A stretch of 64,000 bases of DNA, from assembly GCF_030684315.1 (NCBI RefSeq), contig NC_081369.1, forward strand, positions 51,753,598 to 51,817,597, in the 5' to 3' direction. Numbering within the stretch: position 1 is the stretch's first letter; each line of letters opens with the position of its first letter. Source of the stretch: Stegostoma tigrinum. Lineage: Eukaryota. The notes below the pieces were generated by a model. That model was given only the letters and a program-made list of their open reading frames with translations. It was not told the origin of the DNA and made no database searches. Below, one piece after another: positions 1,860 through 61,800 of the stretch. The translations under genes were made by a program, and so were the position numbers.

Positions 1860-2710
1860 GGAGCTCAATTAAATGCAGTTAATAAATTTGGAATGTGAAT
1901 CTAGTTGACCATGACAATCATCACTGCGCGTTGCAAAAACCCATCTGGTTCACAAATATCCTTTAGGGAAAGAAATCAACCATTCTTATACAAGATAACA
2001 AAGTGTGGAGCTGGATGAACACAGCAGGCCAAGCAGCATCTCAGGAGGACAAAAGAGGACGTTTCAGGCCTAGACCCTACATCAGAAAAGGGGGATGGGG
2101 AGATGGTTCTGAGATAAGTGGGGGGGGGGGGGTGGACTGAAGATGGATAGAAGAGAAGATAGGTGGAGAGTAGAGTTAAGGTGGGGAGGTAGGGAGGGGA
2201 TAGGTCAGCCCGGGGAGGATGGACAGGTCAAGGGGGCGGGATGACATTAGTAGGTAGGAAATGGAGGTGCGGCTTGAGGTGGGAGGAGGGGATGGATGAG
2301 TGAAAGATCAGGTTAGGCAGGCGGGGACGATCTGGGCTGGTTTTAGAATGCAGCAGGGAAGGGAAGATTTTGAAGCTGGTGAAGTCCACTCTGATACCAT
2401 TGAGCTGCAGGGTTCCCAAGCGGAATATGAGTGGCTGTTCCTGCAACCTTCGGGTGGCATCATTATGGCACTGCAGGAGGCCCAGGATGGACATGTCATC
2501 GAAGGAATGGGAGGGGCAGTTGAAATGGTTCACGACTGGGAAGTGCAGTTGTTACCCAGTCTGGCCTACAAGTGACTAGATATTCATAGTAAAGTAGCTA
2601 ACTCTTTACTTCCCCCTGAAGTGACGTAGCTAGGCAATTATGGAATTGAGGAAGGGCAAAAAAAGCTGGTCTTCCCTGTTTCACACACATCCCCTGAAAG
2701 AATAAAGAAA
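1860..2710 (+). mobile_element. tRNA-derived SINE (family B), split by a Penelope insertion
   Basis: 'aaaaacccatctggttcacaaatatcctttagggaaagaaat' continues after 2550 as 'cagtctggcctacaagtgact...gggcaa...aagctgg'; same family as 3115, 32480 and 62890. Confidence 0.65.
1991..2550 (-). mobile_element. Penelope-like element 3' fragment (GIY-YIG C-terminus + pLTR, family 1)
   Basis: ORF 2228-2533 reads HFNCPSHS..MSILGLLQCHNDATRRLQEQPLIFRLGTLQLNG; near-identical to 40684-41209 on the opposite strand; degenerate hammerhead at ~2058-2085. Confidence 0.85.
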
Positions 2711-8177: not shown

Positions 8178-8280
8178 CACTCTGGTTCCTATAATGACTC
8201 CATCCCATTCTCTCAGTTCATCTGTCTCCATCACTCTGCTTCCTGTAAAGACTCCATCCTATCCTCTCAGTTCATCTGTC
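8178..8280 (+). repeat. Tandem duplication (54-bp period) inside the Penelope ORF
   Basis: cactctggttcctataatgactccatcccattctctcagttcatctgtc / cactctgcttcctgtaaagactccatcctatcctctcagttcatctgtc. Confidence 0.85.
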
Positions 8281-9287
8281 ATATATGTTCTGATGAGGCC
8301 ACCTTTGACAAGGGTGCCTCTGAAATGTCCATCATCCCCCTCAACCAAGGATTCCCAGCATTGTTGTTGACAGGGCCCTCAACCAGGTGTAATCCATCTC
8401 CCACGCTTCCACCCTTACCCCTCTCTTCCCTCTTACAACAGCGATAGTTTTCCCATTGTCGTTACTTACCATCTCACCAGCATCCAATCCAGAAGATCAT
8501 CAGACTCTATTTCCACCACCTCCAGCAAGATGCCAACACCAGATACATATTTCCCTCACCTCCTTGTCCAACTTCTGCAGGGACCATTCCTTCTGAGACA
8601 TTCTGGCCCAGTCTTTCTTCACTACCAACAGCCCCTACAGCCCTGCGACACCTTCTCCTGTAATCTGTGAAGGTGCAACACCTGCCCATTTACCTCCTCC
8701 CTCCCTGGTATCTAAGGGCACAAACATACCTTTCAGTTGAAGCAGGGCTTTACCTGCACTTCCCACAATCTATCTATTGCATTCACTGCTCACTTGTCTA
8801 CTCTACAATGTGGAAATAAAGAATAGAGTAGGTGACCGCTTCACAGAAAATGTACATTCTGTCCACAAAAAAAGACCCTGCGCTTCCAGTTGCCTCCCAC
8901 TTTAACACACCACCTTGTTCCTGGGCCAGCAACTCTGTATTAGGCTGGCTGTAGTGTTCCAGCGAAACTCAGCACAAACTGGAAGAACAACACCTCATTT
9001 GCTGTTCAGGGATCCTCAGCCCTCCAGACTCAATATCAAATTCAATAATTTAAGCCTGAACATTCCCAAGTCCCAGGCCCCTACCCCACACACCAGGACT
9101 TGTTATGACATAGCCTGCCATTACACATCACCTGTTGTTAGTCATTAACAGTCCCCACGAACAGCTTTTCACCCTCCCAGCCTGATCATTATCAACTCTT
9201 TTGTCTGTCCAACTGTTCTCTCTCTTTGGGCTCTATCCCACCTATTGTTTACTCCTTACCCTCTCTGCTGGCTCTGTCTTCTGCATA

Positions 9288-9899: not shown

Positions 9900-10086
9900 A
9901 GAGATACTGGGAACTGCAGATGCTGGAGAATCCAAGATAATAAAATGTGAGGCTGGATGAACACAGCAGGCCCAGCAGCATCTCAGGAGCATCTGATGAA
10001 GGGTCTAGGCCCGAAACGTCAGCTTTTGTGCTCCTGAGATGCTGCTGGGCCTGCTGTGTTCATCCAGCCTCACATTTTATTATCTT
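9900..10086. mobile_element. Fold-back PLE mini-insertion (family 1) with hammerhead in the loop
   Basis: Perfect 58-bp inverted arms 9934-9991/10029-10086; exact 10-bp TSD agatagtcta (9890-9899/10087-10096). Confidence 0.92.
9993..10020 (+). ncRNA. Minimal type I hammerhead ribozyme motif, intact core
   Basis: CTGATGA-a-ggg-tctagg-ccc-GAA-ACGT-C: conserved core, palindromic ACGT helix III, GUC cleavage triplet. Confidence 0.8.
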
Positions 10087-13000
10087 AGATAGTCTATGTG
10101 AGTGGGCAAAGATCAGGCAGATGGAGTACAATGTTGATAAGTATGAGGTCATCCATCTTGGTAGGAATAATAGCAAAATGGACTATGTTTTAAATGGTAA
10201 AAAATTGCAGCCCACTGCCGTACAGAGGTGTCCTTGTGCATGAATCGCTAAAAGTAGGGTTGCAGGTGCAGCAGGTAATTAAAAAGGCAAATGGCATTTT
10301 GTCGGCCATTGCTAGAGGGATGGAGTTTAAAAACAGGGAGGCTATGCTGCAGCTGCATAGGGTCCTGGTGAGGCCACACTGGAATATTGTGCGCAGCTTT
10401 GGTCTCCTTACTTGAGAAGAGATATACTAGCGCTGGAGGGGGTGCAGAGGAGATTCACTTGGTTAATTCCAGAATTGAGAGGTTGGATTATGAGGAGAGA
10501 CTGAGTAGACTGGGATTATATTCATTGGAATTCAGAAGAATGAGAGGAGATCTTATAGAAACATTCAAGATTATGAAGGGAATAGATAAAGTGGAGGCAG
10601 GGAGCTTGTTTCCGCTAGCAGGTGAAACTAGGACTAGAGAGCATCACCTCAAAATAAAGGGAAGCAGATGTAGGACTGAGGTCAGGAGGACCTTCTTCAC
10701 CAAAGGGTTGTGAATCTGTGGAATTTCCTACCCAGTGAAGCGGTTGAAGCTGCCTCACTGAATGTTTTTAAGGCAAGGCTAGATAAATGTTTGAACAGTA
10801 AAGGAGTTAAGGGTTATGGTGAGTAGGGGGGGTAAGTGGAGCTGAGTCTCAAAAAGATCAGCCATGATCTTATTAAATGACGGGGCAGGCTTAAGGGGAC
10901 AGATGGCCTACTCCTGCTCCTAGTGCTTAGATAAGTTTTTCCTGACAACCAACAATGGATTTATGGTCATGCTTAGATTCTTGATTCCAGATTTTTGTTG
11001 TTGAATTCAAATTTCACCATCTGCCGTAATGGGATTCAAATCTGCAACACCAGAACATTGCCTGTGTCTCTAGATTAACAGACCAGCAATAATACCACTA
11101 GGCCATCAAGCTCTCCATGTGGAATAGTTCTATCACATTCAAGAGATCTCAGTTGCAATGTTGACGTACAAATGCAAGCATGCCTTTAAGAGACTGCTCA
11201 ATACCATGAGCAAAGTGGCCCATGAGCTGTTTAACATTTTTGGTGGCTCCCACAGGCCAACAAAAGAAATTCTCTCTTAGAGCCAGTACACATAAGAATT
11301 CCCCAATCTCTTTGTTTCTGCTGCACCAACATCAGCCTGTTCAACATGAAAACTAGGTAATTTCTCAATCTCCCATGACCAGTGTGCGCCAGTGAGATCT
11401 TTGCTTTTTGGCTGCATCCTCTTAATGGTGGGGCCTCACCAGTATCTCTCACAAGTGATTCTCACACAGTCAACAACTGGCAAATGGTAGGCACACCCCA
11501 GCTACCTGCTGTACACCCAGAGTTAAAATCATATTTTCTTTCTGTGCACAGAGATGAACAGTTTACTTGACATTATTCTCCATGCATTTTCTCGGTTTCA
11601 AAGATCACCAACCAAACTGGGTTATGATATCATCAGTTCAATTCAGTTCAACACAGGCATCCTTCTGTCTGTGCAAAGTGGTGGATTCGGCAGCAAAATA
11701 ATCCTACTTCAGACAGACTGCTTTCATTTAGCACACGTTTGATAAAGGTTGGAGGGTCTTGAATATTTGAACATATGGACTTGCAAAGTTGGAATAGTGT
11801 TCAGCTATTTGAACTCAAGCCATCCATACCTTCCAAAACCATTGTTACTAATCTGCTTGAGTTTCATGTTCCATATTCCCAGCTACCCATAAACTTTTAA
11901 TCCTCTCGCCTAAAAAGAATAGATCAACCTCTCCTTTAAAAATAATCAATAACTCCACTTCTGCATTTTGAGGCAAAGTTCCAAATTCTCACAACCCACT
12001 GGGAGAAACAAAAAGCTTCTTCATCTCTGACTTAAAAAAGTGACTCCTAATTTTAAAATACTGTCTTCAAGTTTTGTTTTGGACTGACCCAGAAGAGGAA
12101 ACATCTTTTCCACATCTAGCTTGTCAAGACTGTTCAGGATCTGATACACTTCAATCAAATCTCACTTCACTCTTCTAAACTCCAATGGAAACAAACCCAA
12201 TGTGTCATAACTACCCTCATAAGGCAACACATTCATTCCAGGTATCAATCTAGTAAACCTCCTGTATATTACCTGCCACATATTTACACCTTTCCTTAAT
12301 TAAGAAGACTAAAACTGCACACGTTATTCAAGATGTGGTCTCACCAATGTCCTGTCTCACTGAAAAGTGACATTCTTACTTTAACTTTCAATTCTTACAA
12401 TAAAGTTTTGCATCCTGTTGGCCTTCTTGATCACAAATTATATCATCATACTAACTTATTCTGATTGAAGTGCTAGAACAGCTGGATTTCTCAAAACCTC
12501 AGATTTCTGCAACTGTTGTCTGTTTAAGTAGCACTTTGTTTTTATTCTTCCTGCCAAAGTAAACAACATTGCACTTTCCCACACTATATTTCATCTGCCA
12601 GATTTTTACCCACTCACTCAACCAACCTATATCCTTCATCATGTCTTCTTCACAACATATGTTCTTACCAATCTCTCATCTAAGCCAGGGATATAAATTA
12701 TAAAAATTTGTGGCACGGCACAGACCCCTCTGGAACTCCATTTGTCACATCCTGCCAACAAGATAAAGCCTAGTTTGGATATACTGACTTTTTTTGCCAG
12801 CAAGTCTATCCATGTTAGTATGTGAACCCCTACACCATGAGCTTTTACTTTCCACAATAACCTTTTATGAGATACCTTATCAAATACCTCCTTGAAATTC
12901 AAGTCCAGTATATCTACAGATTTCTCTTTACCCACTGTCGCAGCACATGCGGCTCCTTCAAAGAAGTGTAAAGAATTAGCTAAACATGATTTCCCTTTCA

Positions 13001-24667: not shown

Positions 24668-25050
24668 AATCTCCCCTCCCCCCACTGCAACCCAATCCCG
24701 CCCAGCTCGTCCTCGCCTGCCTAACCTGCTGTTCCTCTCACGCATCCCCTCCTCCCACCTCAAGCCACACCTCCATTTCCTACCTACCAACCTCATCCTG
24801 CCCCTTTGACCTGTCCGTCCTCCCCAGACTGACCTATCCCCTCCCCACCTCCCCGCCAATACTCTCCTCTCCAACTATCTTCTCCTCTATCCATCTTCAG
24901 TGCGCCTCCCCCTCTCTCCATATTTATTTCAGAATCCTCTCTCCATCCCCCTTTTCTGATGAAGGGTCTAGGCCCGAAACAGCAGCTTTTGTGCTCTTAA
25001 GATGCTGTTTGTTCTGCTGTGTTCATCCAGCTCCACACTTTTTTATCTCA
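24668..25050 (+). mobile_element. Penelope pLTR fragment (family 1) with hammerhead motif at 24956-24983
   Basis: Colinear with 40830-41209; CTGATGAagggtctaggcccGAAACAGC with mutated cleavage triplet. Confidence 0.85.
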
Positions 25051-25927: not shown

Positions 25928-26060
25928 AGTGATAATGGGAACTGCAGATGCTGGAGAATCCAAGGTAACAAAATGTGAGCCTGGATGAACACAGCAGGCC
26001 CAGCAGCATCTCAGAAGCACAAAAGCTGACGTTTCGGGCCTAGACCCTTCATCAGAGAGG
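25928..26060 (-). mobile_element. PLE mini-insertion (family 1) ending just past the hammerhead
   Basis: Near-identical to the arm at 9900-9991, plus the hammerhead. Confidence 0.88.
26028..26055 (-). ncRNA. Minimal hammerhead ribozyme motif, intact core
   Basis: Minus strand: ctct-CTGATGA-a-ggg-tctagg-ccc-GAA-ACGT-C-ag. Confidence 0.8.
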
Positions 26061-26571
26061 CAAGGTTTTCAATGTATCGTATGGAAGGAAAAATAATTTC
26101 AGGAATATATTCAAAACTGCTCCAGAAATTTGTGGTTGATACCAAGTGTCATGCATTGTGTTTAGTACTTGGTAGATGCTGCAAAAAAAGCCTGTCCCAG
26201 TAGAAGTCTTATTATTTGCTTTGACCCAGGAGAATATTTTAATAAGCAGCATTTTCAGTGCCCTTTATGTCTCATGGAACAACACAACAACCAAAAAAAA
26301 AGTCAATTCAGCAACAATCATGTTGCAGGCAGAAGTTAATGAGCACATGATCAAGTAAGGTTTGCTGATTATAGCAGTAACTGAGGATTTGTGTATGTAC
26401 GCTCAAATTCAGAGTCTGCTTCCAAATGCATTAATATTTTCCCTTTTGATTTTCGGTGGACTTAGCATGATATAAAATGCTAAGTGTGTCTTTGCAGTAT
26501 ATTAGTCGGATGTCTGGCAAACAAATTTATGGTGTCAATATGAGAATACTTGGGAGGAAAATCATATGGAG

Positions 26572-26930
26572 TTTTTTTGTTCATTCATGAAATGTTGGTG
26601 TTGCTGACAAGACCAATATTTCTTGCCCATCCCTAGTTGCTCTTGAGAAGATGGTAATGAGCTGCCTTCTTGAATCACTGCAGTTCATTTGGTATATCTA
26701 AATATATATTGCTGTTATGGAGGGAGTTCCAGAATTTCGATCCAACAACAATGAGGAAACAGTGCCCTGTCATATTAAGTCAGGCTGGCATATGGCTTTG
26801 AGGAAAAGTTGCTTCCATGTTTCTGCTGCCCTTGTCCTTCTGGATGATTGTGAATTTGGAAGGTGCTGTCCAGTGAGCCTTGGTGAATTTCTGCAGTGCT
26901 ACTCGTGGATGGTACAAACTGCTGCTATTC
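26572..26930 (-). mobile_element. L2/CR1-group LINE 3' fragment
   Basis: Reverse complement of the tail at 46975-47400 ('gcccatccctagttgctcttgagaagatggtaatgagctgccttcttgaa'). Confidence 0.75.
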
Positions 26931-27127
26931 GGTCTGCCTCTCGTTTACTTGTAAACAAAATGGATCGAGCTCAAATAATTTGTTCAGGATTATTTCTCAT
27001 TATTATTGAAAGGCCTGTTAAAAATTAAGATAAATTTTGAAAATGAATGTCAAAAAGGAAAATCAAACAACAGCTTGAAGAGTATCCAAACAGAAAGGAC
27101 AATGGAAACAGAAATATCAAAGCTTTG

Positions 27128-27331
27128 TTGAACACAACAGGCCAAGCAGCATCTTAGGAGCACAAAAGCTTACGTTTCGGGCCTAGACACTTCAAAAGGA
27201 ATCTGGTGAAGGGTCTAGGCCTGAAATGTCAGCTTTTGTGCTCTTAAGGTGCTGCTTGGCCTGCTGTCTTCATCCAGCTCTACACTTTGTTATCTCGGAT
27301 TCTCCAGCATCTGCAGTTCCCATTATCTCTC
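27128..27331. mobile_element. Fold-back PLE mini-insertion (family 1) with two back-to-back degenerate hammerheads
   Basis: Inverted arms about ~27200; 14-bp TSD atatcaaagctttg/atatcaaggctttg (27114-27127/27332-27345). Confidence 0.9.
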
Positions 27332-27520
27332 ATATCAAGGCTTTGTATTTGTTTAAGTACACATTGGTAAAGGGCCAACTAAAGAAATAATAATCTAATT
27401 AAAATATGCATATTGTAGAAAATCTATCCCCATTATGAAATTCTTCCAAATTAAATGACTTTGAGATTTCATTAAAAGCATAGTTGAAAAGCTTTAGAAC
27501 AAATCAACACAAAAGAAACA

Positions 27521-27731
27521 TAAAAACCAAAGGAACTGCAGATGCTGTAAATCTGGAACAAAAACAAAGTTGCTGGAAAAGCTCAGCAGGTCTGGCAGCA
27601 TCTGTGAAGAAAAGAAATCAGACTTAACGTTTCGGGTCCAGTGACCCTTCCACAGAATGGTTCTGAAACTGACCTAAAACATTCACTCTGATTTTTTTCT
27701 TCACAGAGGCTGCCAGACCTGCTGACTTTTT
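27521..27731. mobile_element. Fold-back PLE mini-insertion (family 2)
   Basis: cagcaggtctggcagcatctgtgaaga / tcttcacagaggctgccagacctgctg arms; hammerhead-like motif on minus 27626-27655; 12-bp TSD acaaaagaaaca/acaaaagcaaca (27509-27520/27732-27743). Confidence 0.88.
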
Positions 27732-27744
27732 ACAAAAGCAACAA

Positions 27745-28630
27745 TGCCTGTGTATGATGGAACAGCACTCATTCTGGCAAATTCGGAGTATTCCTTCATA
27801 CTCCTGACTTGGGCCTTGTAGGTGATGAAAAGACTTGGAGGGCTAAGAGTTGAGTCATTGCTGCAAAATTCCCAGCCTGTGACTTGCTGTTGTAGGCACA
27901 GTATTGATGTGGTTAATTTAGTTCATTGCCTGAACAATGGTAACGCACAGGATGTTGGTCACAAGAGATTCAGTAGTGGTAATGGCATCAAATACAGAAA
28001 AGCAATTGACAGGTTCTCTGATGTTGGAAATTGACTGCCATTTGTGTGACACAAATATTACTCACCAATTTTCAGCCCAAAACTGGATATTGGCCAGGTC
28101 AGAGGTAGTAGGAACTGTAGGACGGTAGGAATTTTCTGAAGAAGGGTCTCGACCCGAAACGTCAGCTTTCCTGCTCCTCTGATGCTGCTTGGCCTGCTGT
28201 GTTCATCCAATTTACACCTTGTTATCTCACATTGTCCAAGTCATACTACATTGATGTATGGACTGTTTCAGTATCTAGTAAAGCTTGAATATTCATAAAC
28301 ATAGCAAAATCATCAGTGAAAACCCTACTTCTGACTTTATGATGGAGGGAAAGTCATTGATGAAGAAGTGGAAAATGTTTGCACCCAGGACACTGCCCTG
28401 AGGACCTGCTGCCAAGATGTCTAGAGCTGAGATAACTGGTGTCCAATAACCATCAGCATCTTCCTTGGTGCTAGCCATGATTCTAATCATCAGATAGTTT
28501 TCCATTTGACTCACATTGACTCCGGTTTTGCTATGGTTCCTCGATGCCACGCTCAGTTGAATGCATCCTCGAAGTAAAAGGCAATCATTCTCACCTCCCC
28601 TCGCGAATTGAATTCTTTTTTTCCATATGA
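27745..28630 (-). mobile_element. L2/CR1-group LINE RT fragment
   Basis: AGPQGSVLGANIFHFFINDFPSIIKSEVG; homologous to 59440-60190 on the opposite strand. Confidence 0.8.
28101..28228 (+). mobile_element. PLE mini-insertion (family 1 variant) with intact hammerhead at 28136-28163
   Basis: CTGAAGA-a-gggt-ctcg-accc-GAA-ACGT-C; short inverted 5' piece; diverged 14-bp TSD atattggccaggtc/acattgtccaagtc. Confidence 0.85.
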
Positions 28631-28749
28631 CATAATACCGACTGTTACACCATTATATTTAAGTGTTTGCTTGAAAAGAATTCAGTAATAATATTTTAAC
28701 ATTTCGGCTTGTAAAAATTGTGTACTGATGTGTTAGCATATGAGGCGTA

Positions 28750-29310
28750 GAAAGATGGCTCAGTAGTTAGCACAGCTGCCTCACAGTGCCATGGGCCCAG
28801 CTTTGATTGCACCCTCAGTCTGTGTGGAGTTTGCACATTCTCCCTGTGCCTGCTTGTGTTTCTGCCAGGTGCTCCATTTACCTCCCACAGTCCAAATAAA
28901 AACCAAAAGAACTACGGATACGGTAAATCAGGAACAAAAACAAACTAGATGGAAAAGTTCAGCAGGTCTGGCAGCACCTGTGGAGGAGAACGTTTCTCAG
29001 TTCTGTTGAAGGGTCACCGGACCCAAAATGTTAACTCTGTTTTCTCCTCCACAGATGCTGCCAGACCTGCTGAGCTTTACCAGCAACTTTGTTTTTGTCC
29101 CACGGTCCAAAGGTACTCAGGATAGGTGGACTGGCCTTGCTAAATTGTCCATAGTGTCGACGGATGTGCAGGCTAAGTGGTTTAGCCTTGGAAATGCAGG
29201 GCTACAAAGATAAGATAGAGGAGTGGGTCTGGGTGGAATGCTCTTTGGGGGATTGGTGTGGATTCTGTAGGCTATATGGTCTGCTGCCACACTGTTAGGA
29301 TTCTATGATC
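28750..29310 (+). mobile_element. HE1-type SINE interrupted by a PLE hairpin
   Basis: A box tggctcagtag, 'gagtttgcacattctccc', core resumes at 29098. Confidence 0.85.
28897..29097. mobile_element. Fold-back PLE mini-insertion (family 2)
   Basis: Inverted arms; degenerate hammerhead at ~29003-29032; 14-bp TSD tcccacagtccaaa/tcccacggtccaaa (28883-28896/29098-29111). Confidence 0.9.
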
Positions 29311-29455
29311 CTTTCTCTGCTGATGAAGTTACTGTAAGCCAATGAAAAATAGGTCCTTTGATGTGAGCAATTGACCTGCTCAATCACAAGAATGATACAC
29401 TTACTAAAAAAAAAATTCATTAAGTAATGAAGTCCACAGGCATGCATCTGAACTG

Positions 29456-29585
29456 AAAACTAAAAGAGCTGCAGATGCTGCAATTCAGAGACAAAACAAA
29501 AAGGAATTGCTGGCAAAACTCAATAGGTCTGGCAGCATCTGTGGAGAGAAAGCAGAATTAACATTTCAGTTCCAGTGACCAGCCT
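29456..29585 (-). mobile_element. PLE mini-insertion (family 2), single arm
   Basis: 'ggtctggcagcatctgtggagagaaagcagaattaacatttcagttccagtgacc' ends within the hammerhead. Confidence 0.75.
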
Positions 29586-29609
29586 CTGAATTAAGTTGCA
29601 CAGAAATAG

Positions 29610-30048
29610 GTACTAATTCGCTGAAATTAAGAAAAGTTTGCAAGGACCTTTCATGAAGACAATGTCCTTTGTTGGCTTTCCCCACGTTACTCATATATTT
29701 CTACGGAGAGGACAAGGATATCGGCTATTCCTAATGCAACAGCAAAATACGAGAAATCTGAAATATAAACCCGAAGTGCCAGAAGTGCTCAGAAGGCCAA
29801 ACAATGTTCTGTGGAAAGAGAAACAAGGGTTCACATTTCAGATCTGCCACTGTCAATCGGACTTTTTCTGTCCACAGGTGTTGCCTGATCTGCTGCACGT
29901 TTCCAGCTGTTTCTCTTTTAATAACCTGTTACTGAGTTCTGAGCACTCTTAAAAAAAGCTCTTACGTATTCTCAAAATTTCCTTTGAATAATGCGTGGGA
30001 GAGATTCATGGCCTGATATTTCCTCTGGGGAAGGGACTACCATAATTC
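29610..30048 (+). repeat. Left arm of a long inverted duplication (partner 34574-35023)
   Basis: e.g. catggcctgatatttcctctggg vs cccagaggaaatatcaggccatg; ttacgtattctcaaa vs tttgagaatacgtaa; cagatctgccactgtcaatc vs gattgacaatggcagatctg. Confidence 0.88.
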
Positions 30049-30054
30049 TGAACT

Positions 30055-30155
30055 ATCGCTTCTGAAGACGGGTCACTGGACCCGAAACATTAACTCTGCT
30101 TCCTCTCCGCAGATGCTGCCAGAAATGCTGAGCTTTTTCCAGCACTTTTCTGTTT
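30055..30155 (+). mobile_element. PLE mini-insertion (family 2) beginning at the hammerhead (30062-30091)
   Basis: CTGAAGA-c-gggtc-actg-gaccc-GAA-ACAT-T-aact; ctgaact repeated at both flanks. Confidence 0.8.
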
Positions 30156-40579: not shown

Positions 40580-41278
40580 ACAAAAAATAAAGAAATGCAG
40601 ATGCTGAAAACAAAAACAAATATTGCTGGAGAAACTCAGCAGGTCTGGCAGCTTCTGTGGAGAGGAAGGAACATTTTGGATCCCCCTCCCATTCCTTAGA
40701 TGACATGTCCATCATGGACCTCTTGCAGTGCCACAATGATGCCACCCGAAGGTTGCAGGAACAGCAACTCATATTCCGCTTGGGAACCCTGCAGCCCAAT
40801 GGCATCAATGTGGACTTCACAAGCTTCAAACTCTCCCCTTCCCCCACTGCATCCCAAAACCAGTCCAGCTCATCCCTGCCTCCCTAACCTGTTCTTCCTC
40901 TCACCTATCCCCTCTTCCCACCTCAAGCCGCACCTCCATTTCCTACCTACTAACCTCATCCCGCCTCTTTGACCTGTCCATCCTCCCTGGACTGACCTAA
41001 CCCCTCCCTACCTCCCCACCTATACTCTCCTCTCCACCTATCTTCTTTTCTCTCCATCTTCGGTCCGCCTCCCCCATCTCCCTATTTATTCCAGTTCCCT
41101 CTCCCCATTCCCCCTCTCTGATGAAGGGTCTAGGCCTGAAATATCAGCTTTTGTGCTCCTGAGATGCTGCTTGGCCTGCTGTGTTCATCCAACTCCACAC
41201 TTTGTTATCTTGGATCCAGAGACCTTTCTTCAGAGAACAGGCTTGCTACATTTTTTCTAGCAATTTCTCTTTTCGTTA
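40580..41278. mobile_element. Family 2 PLE hairpin with a family 1 Penelope fragment (40684-41209, +) inserted at its centre
   Basis: Inner piece encodes SPSHSLDDMSIMDLLQCHNDATRRLQEQQLIFRLGTLQPNGINVDF plus pLTR; ttggatcc repeated at 40676-40683/41210-41217. Confidence 0.85.
41118..41145 (+). ncRNA. Minimal hammerhead ribozyme motif
   Basis: ct-CTGATGA-a-ggg-tctagg-cct-GAA-ATAT-C-ag; palindromic ATAT, AUC triplet. Confidence 0.7.
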
Positions 41279-41783: not shown

Positions 41784-42043
41784 AGGTAACAAGGTGTAAG
41801 GCTGGATGGACACAGCAGGCCAAGCAGCATCAGAGGAGCAGGAAAGCTGATGTTTCGGGGCCTAGACTCTTCTCCAGAATTTCTGAAGAAGGGCCTAGAC
41901 CGAAGCATCAGCTTTCCTGCTCCTATGATGCTCCTTGGCCTGCTGTGGTCATCCAGCTCTACACTTTGTCATCTCTGATTCTTCAGCATCTGCAGTTCCC
42001 ACTATCTCTGATTCTTCAGCATCTGCAGTTCCCACTATCTCTG
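41784..42043. mobile_element. Fold-back PLE mini-insertion (family 1 variant) with terminal 33-bp tandem duplication
   Basis: Exact 13-bp TSD aagaagaaagttg (41771-41783/42044-42056); two back-to-back degenerate hammerheads around 41880. Confidence 0.92.
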
Positions 42044-43720
42044 AAGAAGAAAGTTGCCAAGTTTTCGAAGAGGAAGGAGAAACACAGTAAATGAGCAAGT
42101 AATGAGTAATGAAAAATCTTGAGTCTTGAGCTCCTGCAAATTGTATGATGGTTGAGAAGTTCCACAAATATCTGCACTTTGTTTGCAGGATAAGGCACAA
42201 TGCAATTTAGTTTGACTTCATGACAACAAGAACGCGTAGAGGAGGAAGGTACAGAGAGGGAAAGTTCAGAAGATCAAAAAACATAATAGTTTGAGTAAAT
42301 GGGGGTCAGATCTTGTTGGTAATGACAAGATTGATCAATGCTAGTGGCCGGAGGTGAAGCATTGATCAACAAGACACTAATTACTAATAATAATTTTGAA
42401 ATTATGGGAAGTTATAATTTACTCTTCCCAGATAATTTATGTTGACATATTTTACATTAGGTCAGTATTTGTTCTTAGTCTGTTTGTTTGGGTGCATTCA
42501 GAAACTACCCTGCATTTACACTGCTTGATTAATCTGAAAATAGTCCTTGTATATAGAAATATAATCAGTGCTGCGTTCAAGTAATGTCTCACAACCATGT
42601 ACACCACTGAATCATGATTAATGAGGCTAATTATCCTGTCTGAAAGTGGAAAGATTTTAGCCATTCTTTTAAACGTTCCATGAAAAATTCTTTGTAGCCG
42701 ACTAAAATAATGCTATTTCTGCACCAGACAGACAGAAAGAGATTTGGTTTCCTGTTTAATTGTTATCTATTCCAAAGGATATTGGTCAGCAGCCAACGCT
42801 CCCAAAAAAAGGTAGAGAAAGTAATTGTTACAATTTCTTTTACAACACCAAGTTTATATAACATTTATGCAATGTTTACACTTACTAGAACCAGAGCAAG
42901 ATTTTACTGGCATTATATTATAGAATAACATCTTTTCAAATGTATTTCTCATCATTTTTATCTATAACACGGGATTTGTTGAACTTTCTGATGTTAAATG
43001 CAAACAGAAAATGCTGCAGAAACTCAATGGCTCCGGCAGCATCTGTGAAGAAAGAAACAAATTTAACAATGCAAGTCTAACATAACACATCTTCATAATC
43101 AAGATATTCTGTTTGTATTTCAGATCTCCAGAATTTATATTAATTTGATTTTATTTGAGTTTGCTGATGTCTCTAGCTAAAATTGCTTAATTGCTAAAAT
43201 CTAATATTCGTATAAATCTATACTGGATTGAAACTTTGAACATTGAATTTTCTTTTAGTAATGTAGTTATTGTCTAGTTGTAAAAACAAAAGTGAAAGTT
43301 TGGAATTGAAAGCAATGTTTGAAAAGCAAGGCTTGGAAAGCAATGATAATGCACAACAGATTACTCCAGCTTTAAATGAGGAAGACAACTTTGAGTAAAA
43401 CATTATGCCAAAGCAATGAATGAGCTTCAGTCAATATACTGAAAAAAACTATTCATTTGTGGGAATTAGATTTGGATTCATACCAGCAGCCAGGTAGAAA
43501 TGTCAACAGCTACAATAGAATAATAGCTATTCATGTCATTGTGCAACTAGCCCCGTATCATGTTTGCATCTGCACTGCTGTGTCTAAGTTTGGAGACAGG
43601 AGCTTCCAATACAGTGCATGCTTTGAAGTATGGGTGAACAGTCCATATACATAAAGTACAAAAGTTTCATAAAGGAAGCTAACATGGATGTTTACTTTTC
43701 CATGAATGACAAATGATTGG

Positions 43721-43765: not shown

Positions 43766-43791
43766 AGATGATTATTCAGTGAGTAACATGA

Positions 43792-44005
43792 AAAAGCCAG
43801 AAGTCACGCTACACCATGTTATAATCCAATAGGTTTATTTAAAATCATAAGCTTTCGGAACGTGGCCCCTTCTCAGGCAACTTCACCTGACGAAGGATTA
43901 GCGCTCTGAAAGTTTGTGATTTCAAATAAACCTGTTGGACTATAACCTGGTGTCGTGTGACTTCTGGCTTTGTCTACCATAGTCCAACACCAGCACCTCC
44001 ACATC
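43792..44005. mobile_element. Fold-back PLE mini-insertion (family 3) with two back-to-back hammerhead motifs
   Basis: aagccagaagtcac..taggtttattt / aaataaacctg..gtgacttctggctt arms; plus-strand motif tcac-CTGACGA-a-gga-ttagcgc-tct-GAA-AGTT-T-gtga (43883-43919). Confidence 0.85.
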
Positions 44006-60689: not shown

Positions 60690-61800
60690 TAGCTGGGTAG
60701 CAGTTGGAGTTGTTGGTCAATTTGCCAAGTTGACTGGTTTTCATATGAACGTTTTGTCTCCCTTCTCGGTGGCATTGTCAATGCTGTATAGCCTCCATTG
60801 AAGTGCTGTTATTCTGTCCGGCTCTGAACTTATATGGTCCAGTCTGTCATGGTGGGCAGAGATAATTAGAACTGCAGATGCTGGAGAATCCAACATAACA
60901 AAGTGTGTAGCTGGATGAACACAGCAGGCCAAGCAGCATCTCAGGAGCACAAAAGCTGACGTTTCGGGCCTAGATCCTTCATCATTTCGACATGTTTGTT
61001 AATTGCATTGGTGGTTGAATACTGGGGCCTCCAGGAATTCGTGTACTTGTCTTTATGTCGCTTGCCCTTGTACTGAAAATTCGTCCCAGTCAAACTGATG
61101 TCCTTCCATGTCAGAGTGTATTGAAATGAAGGAGAATTGATTGTGCTGTTTTGCTGTGAATTGGTGTTCACGTATCCTGGTGGCAGGTTTCCTGCCTGTC
61201 TGTCCTATGTAATGTTTCTCACGTTGCTGCATGGTATTTTGGGTGTCACATTTGCCCTGCTCATTGTGGGTATGGGGTCTTTCATCTTTGAGAGTAACTG
61301 GTGAAGTGTGGCTGTTGGTTTGTATACTATCCTTATTTCAAGAGGTTGTAGACATCTTGTAATCATTTGTGATTTGTTTCTAACATATGAGAGGTTGGCC
61401 AGTGTGTTGGGGTGTACAGTGTCTTCTTGGTGTTGTTTGCTTGCCAGGCATAAGTGGCTGAAGCTATTAGGATAACCATTGTTTGCAGAGAATCTACATT
61501 GGTGTTCCTCTTTGCTCTTGCGCAGCTCCAGGGTGTTGCAGTGAGTTATCGTTTGTTTTGTCAGAGCCTTGACACAGCTCTGATTGTGGATGCCAGTGTG
61601 GTTACTGTTGTAATTCAGGATTTGTTCTCTGTGTGTGTAGTCTTTCTCTATTTGCTGGTAAGGAATTCCCCTTTGTCCATTTGTTCTACCATTATGTGTA
61701 GAAACGGGAGTTCCCTGGTGAACCTGGTCCCAGTGAATATGCTGTTAATAGAGTGGTGTGTTTCTTCTAACTCTGTAAGATACTTTACAATAGATTGACA
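60690..61800 (-). mobile_element. Penelope-like element (family 4): RT C-terminus, GIY-YIG and pLTR, decayed
   Basis: LEETHHSINSIFTGTRFTRE.LPFL; TGRKPATRIREHQ at ~61165-61205; degenerate hammerhead on minus ~60747-60780 (ttgacaatgccaccgagaagggagacaaaacgttc). Confidence 0.8.
60858..60984 (-). mobile_element. PLE mini-insertion (family 1) inside the family 4 PLE, truncated at the hammerhead
   Basis: Near-identical to 25928-26055; ends at 'gacgtttcgggcctagatccttcatca'. Confidence 0.88.

Follow-up and report, generated by a model that had tools for sequence, protein, structure and literature searches.

Why do so many short repeats in one stretch of the Stegostoma tigrinum genome begin at the same edge of a ribozyme motif? 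The stretch in question (hereafter the window) comprises 64,000 nucleotides of contig NC_081369.1 (positions 51,753,598 to 51,817,597) from a genome of 3.2 Gb. It carries repeats of four families (A to D, with B about 75-80% similar to A), which their sequence identifies as probable 3' ends of endonuclease-bearing Penelope-like elements (PLEs), each with a predicted minimal type I hammerhead. We number positions from C3 of the CUGANGA core (0), which puts C17 at +27 in families A and B and at +29 in family C, with the predicted cut after C17. The original prediction listed ten sites at which short copies begin or flip near the core, and proposed that the ribozyme or the tract beside it stops the reverse transcriptase (RT). 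All ten sites do have an arm that starts between -10 and +1. These breakpoints are genuine, but the list was selective, as only 12 of the 29 family A to C arms in the window end at -8 to +11; the others end, for example, at -21, -49, -61, +13, +25, +26, +30, or +37.

We therefore mapped breakpoints relative to C3 and C17 in 32 arbitrarily placed 50-kb blocks of the genome (1.6 Mb), excluding the window copies from the counts. Arms were located through the part downstream of the cleavage site, and their 5' ends were called by local alignment. Arms at block edges and arms with fewer than 40 aligned nt downstream of +30 were excluded, ends 3' of about +55 are under-detected, and three of the 22 family D arms were dropped because they served as references. 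The distribution was not uniform and peaked at the hammerhead in all four families, which confirms a hotspot of 5' ends at the ribozyme edge. In family A, 68 of the 148 arms at risk end at -8 to +11 (0.029 per nt), compared to 2 of 80 at -48 to -9, and the rate stays flat at 0.001-0.002 per nt out to -3200; the peak exceeds the 3-kb upstream rate by a ratio of 21.6, in which paired arms are not independent. The same peak was found in families B (75 of 100) and C (63 of 89) at -8 to +11, and in family D at -9 to +6 (9 of 19). Counted per insertion, ends at -8 to +2 versus -48 to -9 numbered 37 of 125 versus 1 (A), 52 of 100 versus 6 (B), and 47 of 97 versus 7 (C). Altogether, 143 of 431 arms end at -7 to 0.

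A peak of this kind could arise as an alignment artefact in low-complexity sequence or through later deletion at palindrome centers. Long palindromes are unstable, and our references for families B, C, and D are weaker upstream, both of which count for such an origin. However, when long copies with uniform truncation were simulated, the number wrongly placed in the peak was 0 of 106 for family A, 0 of 101 for B, and 1 of 92 for C, which rules out an aligner artefact. Young copies keep the peak (51 of 121), flanks at the breakpoints are unique or an inverted arm (in family A, shared in only 1 of 68), and some single copies have a target duplication close to their breakpoint. This explanation is refuted for family A, and we regard it as extremely improbable for the hotspot as such.

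Judged by the 5'-most end of each insertion, the hotspot has a cliff at about -7, a mode at -5 to -2, and a shoulder that decays in the 3' direction to about +50. The description of a cluster just upstream of the core thus holds for the sharp upstream edge (about -7 to -2) but misses the shoulder, which runs through the core. The expectation that ends would gather at the core and not at the cleavage site was borne out: with family-specific coordinates, 10 ends lie within 1 nt of the cleavage site versus 76 in the 33 flanking nt (P 0.18), which is no clear excess, while a cruder common window (+27 to +30) gives P 0.007. Since the core is kept, the copies derive from RNA that had not self-cleaved, again as predicted. 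Of 86 upstream-anchored copies, none terminates on its 3' side at the cut or at -4. Two other sources of the edge were rejected. One is cleavage at about -3, or a role for the 5' product of cleavage, since 0 of the 86 end before +60; the other is a splice acceptor, since AG occurs at -4/-3 in family C only and no shared upstream exon was seen.

The pyrimidine tract upstream of the core does not account for the edge. A long pyrimidine tract is present, as described, in three long family A copies: 1988..2553 on the minus strand (from -472), which also includes the last part of the endonuclease coding sequence and the pyrimidine-rich 3' untranslated region (UTR), and 24668..25048 (from -288, C3 24956) and 40672..41215 (from -446, C3 41118) on the plus strand. 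The long tract belongs to families A and B, however, and not to all four. RT crosses it at or below the background rate, and families C and D differ upstream yet share the edge, so the tract fails as a stop signal. A stop at the folded ribozyme, in the form originally proposed, is not supported either. Where a fold makes RT stall, the stall should come 3' of the helices, but the edge is found 5' of the fold, among positions (-8 to -1) predicted to be mostly unpaired (0.06-0.30).

The elements themselves appear to be of a familiar kind. One open reading frame (ORF) encodes RT, a cysteine linker, and GIY-YIG, and is followed by the pyrimidine-rich 3' UTR and the sense-strand hammerhead. The best frame (L102) is open for 1068 codons with DKG and YIDD motifs; matches to Pfam RVT_1 (E 6e-5) and GIY-YIG (E 2e-4) fall just under the curated cut-offs, and a search of the PDB gave no match. 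A CxxxxCxxC motif before GIY-YIG in the translation suggests the Zn-finger-like linker of Neptune-type elements, a trait of that clade. The ORF was recovered for families A and B only, while C and D share the 3' architecture and the hammerhead. Reading the four families by eye gives a CUGANGA plus GAAA core, a stem II that covaries among them, a palindromic helix III, and a UH site; a search of Rfam returned no hammerhead match, only chance microRNA matches on palindromes. The repeats have two 3' termini 32-34 nt apart, at about +92 and at +124/126. In near-full-length copies, the same hammerhead and tail also precede the ORF and run on into its start, with the inferred start codon about 40 nt past the tail; this partial tandem (pseudo-long terminal repeat, pLTR) has a contiguous upstream pLTR at 15 of 30 such loci. 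In family A, the 8-mer TCTCTGAT occurs both at the hammerhead edge (-3 to +4) and at the tail end (+123 to +130), and could aid template switching.

Many arms lie head to head, and these pairs are mostly single insertions. A target duplication (at least 9 matches) was found for 29 of 37 short pairs and 20 of 24 long pairs, compared to 0-1% of controls, and one arm is tailed and the other untailed in 83 of 91 family A and B pairs. At non-CpG subfamily variants, the two arms agree in 51/51, 50/52, 50/50, 45/49, 45/51, and 44/48 cases, compared to a baseline of 0.66-0.82 for random arms of the same subfamily. Shared variants would also follow if one cDNA (or antisense RNA) folded back and primed itself on the inverted repeats of the hammerhead, a self-priming proposed in the available text of PMC3846280. 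Junction overlaps of 1-20 nt are common and in some cases centered on the palindromes GGCC, ACGT, or AGCT or on CUGAUG/CGUCAG, as fold-back would have it. We nevertheless disfavor it because a copy of the untailed strand cannot acquire a tail: the tailed arm should be the longer one, but it was longer in 21 pairs and the untailed arm in 45 (P 0.004), with 17 pairs within 2 nt. Unpaired family A copies also show the peak (24 of 67), and 10 of 41 short A and B singles have a target duplication near the breakpoint, leaving fold-back an improbable source of the pairs. Some apparent singles carry an inverted tail remnant of 15-50 nt (BL071 23249, BL121 40293, and BL066 3147, in block coordinates); a few such remnants stop near +95, and one junction has a short templated piece of the core.

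Short copies might alternatively form a separate lineage, resembling short interspersed elements (SINEs) or miniature inverted-repeat transposable elements, that descends from short masters with a fixed 5' end. Their abundance, the fixed look of their start, and somewhat different allele frequencies between short and long copies would suit such a lineage. Junctions vary from copy to copy, however, and short copies share all diagnostic variants with long ones; both kinds are found in each of the two subfamilies and are about equally diverged (0.978/0.973 and 0.940/0.949). Of 50 short tailed arms, six (five of them convincing by eye) also enter ORF-side sequence for 10-22 nt, and a distinct lineage is accordingly hard to credit. 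Since they run into the ORF side, these six arms were copied from a pLTR with the ORF behind it.

The strongest constraint on mechanism is the shared fate of the arms. Of the 51 family A pairs, 31 have both arms ending at or before the core, 18 have both arms passing it, and only 2 are discordant (P 1e-11). A stop signal that acted on each RT independently, as the original prediction had it, would leave about half of the pairs discordant; since about 24 of 51 were expected and 49 are concordant, independent stalls are excluded. The simplest reading is that the fate of both arms would be set by the template. In 4 of 18 long family A pairs, no more than 10 nt separates the two arm ends, at a point far from the ribozyme; this hints at a broken RNA end common to both arms.

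A stall can be reconciled with concordance if two RTs travel on one RNA and the leader, held at the 5' edge of the ribozyme by a fold, a dimer, or a bound protein, blocks the trailer; if the leader passes, so does the other. Such coupling would explain concordance, shared variants, and the longer untailed arm (45 versus 21) with no special RNA end, and in families C and D the 5' strand of helix I, as read from the sequence, falls at the edge. Against it, the stop is reached only once all helices have been copied, in the mostly unpaired stretch noted above, the pyrimidine tract is crossed at background rate, and stops are far rarer at a second hammerhead (4 of 26). In vitro, according to the part of PMC11167929 available, mutations in the hammerhead core left insertion size unchanged. 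We consider a coupled stall unlikely, though it deserves a place among the alternatives, and with it a second role for the ribozyme, as originally proposed, is conceivable.

The mechanism that we favor, and think probable, is internal initiation of RT in the 5' pLTR followed by run-off from an RNA with its 5' terminus near -4, where either transcription began or trimming stopped. In long interspersed elements, full-length 5' ends are run-off copies that mark the transcript start at an internal promoter. Here, the element protein would nick both target strands and start two cDNAs at internal sites, one primed at +92 and the other at +124 or a little past it, both copied from one RNA or from sister RNAs of one locus. 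With a linear RNA that has not been cleaved and a start in its 5' pLTR, both cDNAs would run off the end near -4, while long copies would come from templates that reach farther upstream (read-through of a tandem, a circular RNA, or a start in the downstream pLTR). The cDNA ends would then be joined head to head, or one of them to the target, and trimming and short homologies would smear the ends in the 3' direction. That the RNA end is the transcription start of a putative internal promoter is a tentative suggestion; a motif of the initiator or TCT type would place +1 at -4 in families A, B, and C, and in family C the initiator match TCAKTY is unique within 290 nt. A stop of 5'-to-3' trimming at the protein-bound ribozyme is a close second, if a doubtful one.

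Several observations weigh against run-off at such an end. The initiator motifs are degenerate, were picked after the peak had been seen, and lie at -7 in family D. Non-templated G, the signature of a cap, was not enriched at junctions (7/25, 17/52, and 13/51 versus 6.8, 14.9, and 11.9 expected) or at -4 alone (8/18). In Drosophila virilis, the Penelope start precedes by 46 nt a 75-nt intron whose end is at helix I, which places it about 120 nt upstream of the ribozyme (PMC2377424, PMC4209133). It is because of the loose motifs, the lack of cap G enrichment, and this distant start that trimming is kept as a close second. Arm concordance is predicted equally well if the leading RT stalls on an RNA common to both arms, and gene conversion might raise the similarity of arms.

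The second hammerhead poses a further difficulty for run-off. Tests were made at 16 and 27 loci, and with L199 dropped as non-contiguous they gave 2 of 15 and 4 of 26. The four are young copies that pass the upstream hammerhead and start at -1 or -2 (their 3' ends lie outside the sequence examined), a stop rate well below the 46% at the first (P about 0.003). Most copies pass the second hammerhead, and a second (long or circular) template class must therefore be assumed. The four stops themselves speak for run-off, and two of them (L189 and L212) have a short inverted arm ending at -2/-4; in L189, both this arm and the arm that reaches at least 2 kb into the ORF end at -2. Another locus (L201, G000:C10:16520847-16521717) has a short pair (-2/-4) and, 360 nt downstream of it, a further copy that starts at -1.

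Run-off at the ribozyme edge would resemble a retroviral strong-stop product. In that case, RT from the 5' pLTR could reach the ORF only by a switch to the 3' pLTR or by meeting a circle made by the ribozyme; the hammerhead copies of 100-130 nt would be failed transfers, and successful ones would explain the partial tandems of PLEs. We offer this strong-stop scheme as speculative and rather unlikely.

The repeats fit well among known systems. The insertion units of endonuclease-bearing PLEs (Penelope/Poseidon and Neptune) have a pLTR, an adjoining inverted 5'-truncated copy, and a one-sided tail of 30-40 bp (PMC8557442, PMC3846280), and resemble ours in partial tandems, an inverted head-to-head arm, a tail on one arm, target duplications, and 5' truncation. 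In contrast to our data, the available portions of these two reports give no truncation hotspot at a hammerhead and no shared fate or variants of arms. Metazoan PLE hammerheads are mostly single minimal type I motifs, with some opposite-strand pairs 100-700 bp apart, and have the same core, an extra nucleotide before stem II, and a palindromic helix III (PMC4209133). As far as its accessible text goes, that report proposes cleavage and circularization and contains no breakpoint map, whereas the copies here retain the core, and their ends form no clear peak at the cut. The Poseidon element of Anolis (PAc) initiates reverse transcription in vitro internally at two sites bounding the tail, extends both strands, and uses uncleaved RNA (PMC11167929). 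These features match what we see or propose here and count in favor of our reading, but the sections seen address where RT starts and not where it ends; the PAc ORF begins at stem II, while the one here would begin past the tail.

Twin priming in L1 elements, in which two primers on one RNA yield a 5' inversion, also differs: the two L1 segments do not overlap, whereas both arms here contain the same sequence.

Inverted truncated arms, one-sided tails, and abundant single hammerheads have thus been described already (PMC8557442, PMC3846280, and PMC4209133, in part), and the feature is real, strong, and of a known class, while the mechanism is one that we infer. A literature search, with subscription papers outside its scope, found no paper mapping PLE 5' breakpoints to the hammerhead. 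The mode of PLE replication and the purpose of the hammerhead are given as open questions in the available text of PMC8557442 and PMC11167929. A base-level hotspot together with a shared arm fate constrains the mechanism to two cDNAs from one template class, an uncleaved RNA, and a defined end at the ribozyme edge. It also makes a direct prediction that 5'-end mapping and the existing in vitro system can address. The hotspot explains the abundance of short hammerhead-bearing repeats in this genome; such repeats are not to be taken for active ribozyme genes or for a new SINE.

Within the window, the copies between 25,928 and 30,155 illustrate most of these forms. A short, tailed family A single spans -5 to +124 on the minus strand (25931..26060, C3 26055, predicted C17 26028), and a family A head-to-head pair follows at 27129..27329, with its minus arm at +4 to +69 (27194), its plus arm at -1 to +126 (27202), and 7 nt between them. 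Two family C pairs lie at 27551..27730 (minus arm from -2 at 27657, plus arm from +17 at 27671) and 28927..29101 (plus arm from -6 at 28997, minus arm from +39 at 28990), on either side of a short family B single on the plus strand that starts at -3 (28133..28238, C3 28136). Two further family C copies had not been listed originally: a short one from +9 on the minus strand (29495..29580) and an old fragment from +37 on the plus strand (29864..29919). The old short copy at 30052..30155 (family C, plus strand, C3 30062) was called at -10 (30052).

Elsewhere in the window, a young family A pair (9903..10090) has a tailed minus arm at +36 to +124, an untailed plus arm from -1 (9992), and a 10-nt target duplication. 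A family B pair (41784..42008) has arms from -2 and -4 with the breakpoint at 41879 on both strands, and a family D pair (43790..43975) has a plus arm from -7 (43880) and a minus arm from +15 (43862). A short family A single on the minus strand (60859..60984) starts at +1, inside the core. A family C arm at 40609-40683 meets the long family A copy at 40672-41215 head to head with a 12-nt overlap, and this cross-family junction (40672-40683) may reflect chance or a two-template event. A tail of 33 bp is in tandem duplicate at 41971-42044, and older PLE ORF fragments, identified by eye, lie on both strands at about 8180-8510 along with a 54-bp tandem duplication.

Tandem retrozymes are PLE derivatives according to the available text of 10.64898/2026.07.22.740005. 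Head-to-tail hammerhead tandems of the retrozyme type were not seen in the window, where copies are single or head to head. Outside it, one locus (L220, G000:C4:126926000-126928600) holds a head-to-tail array of about 99% identical units of about 655 bp, each corresponding to -247 to +408 of a young family A element and including the hammerhead and the ORF start. This array is retrozyme-like and compatible with rolling-circle copying.

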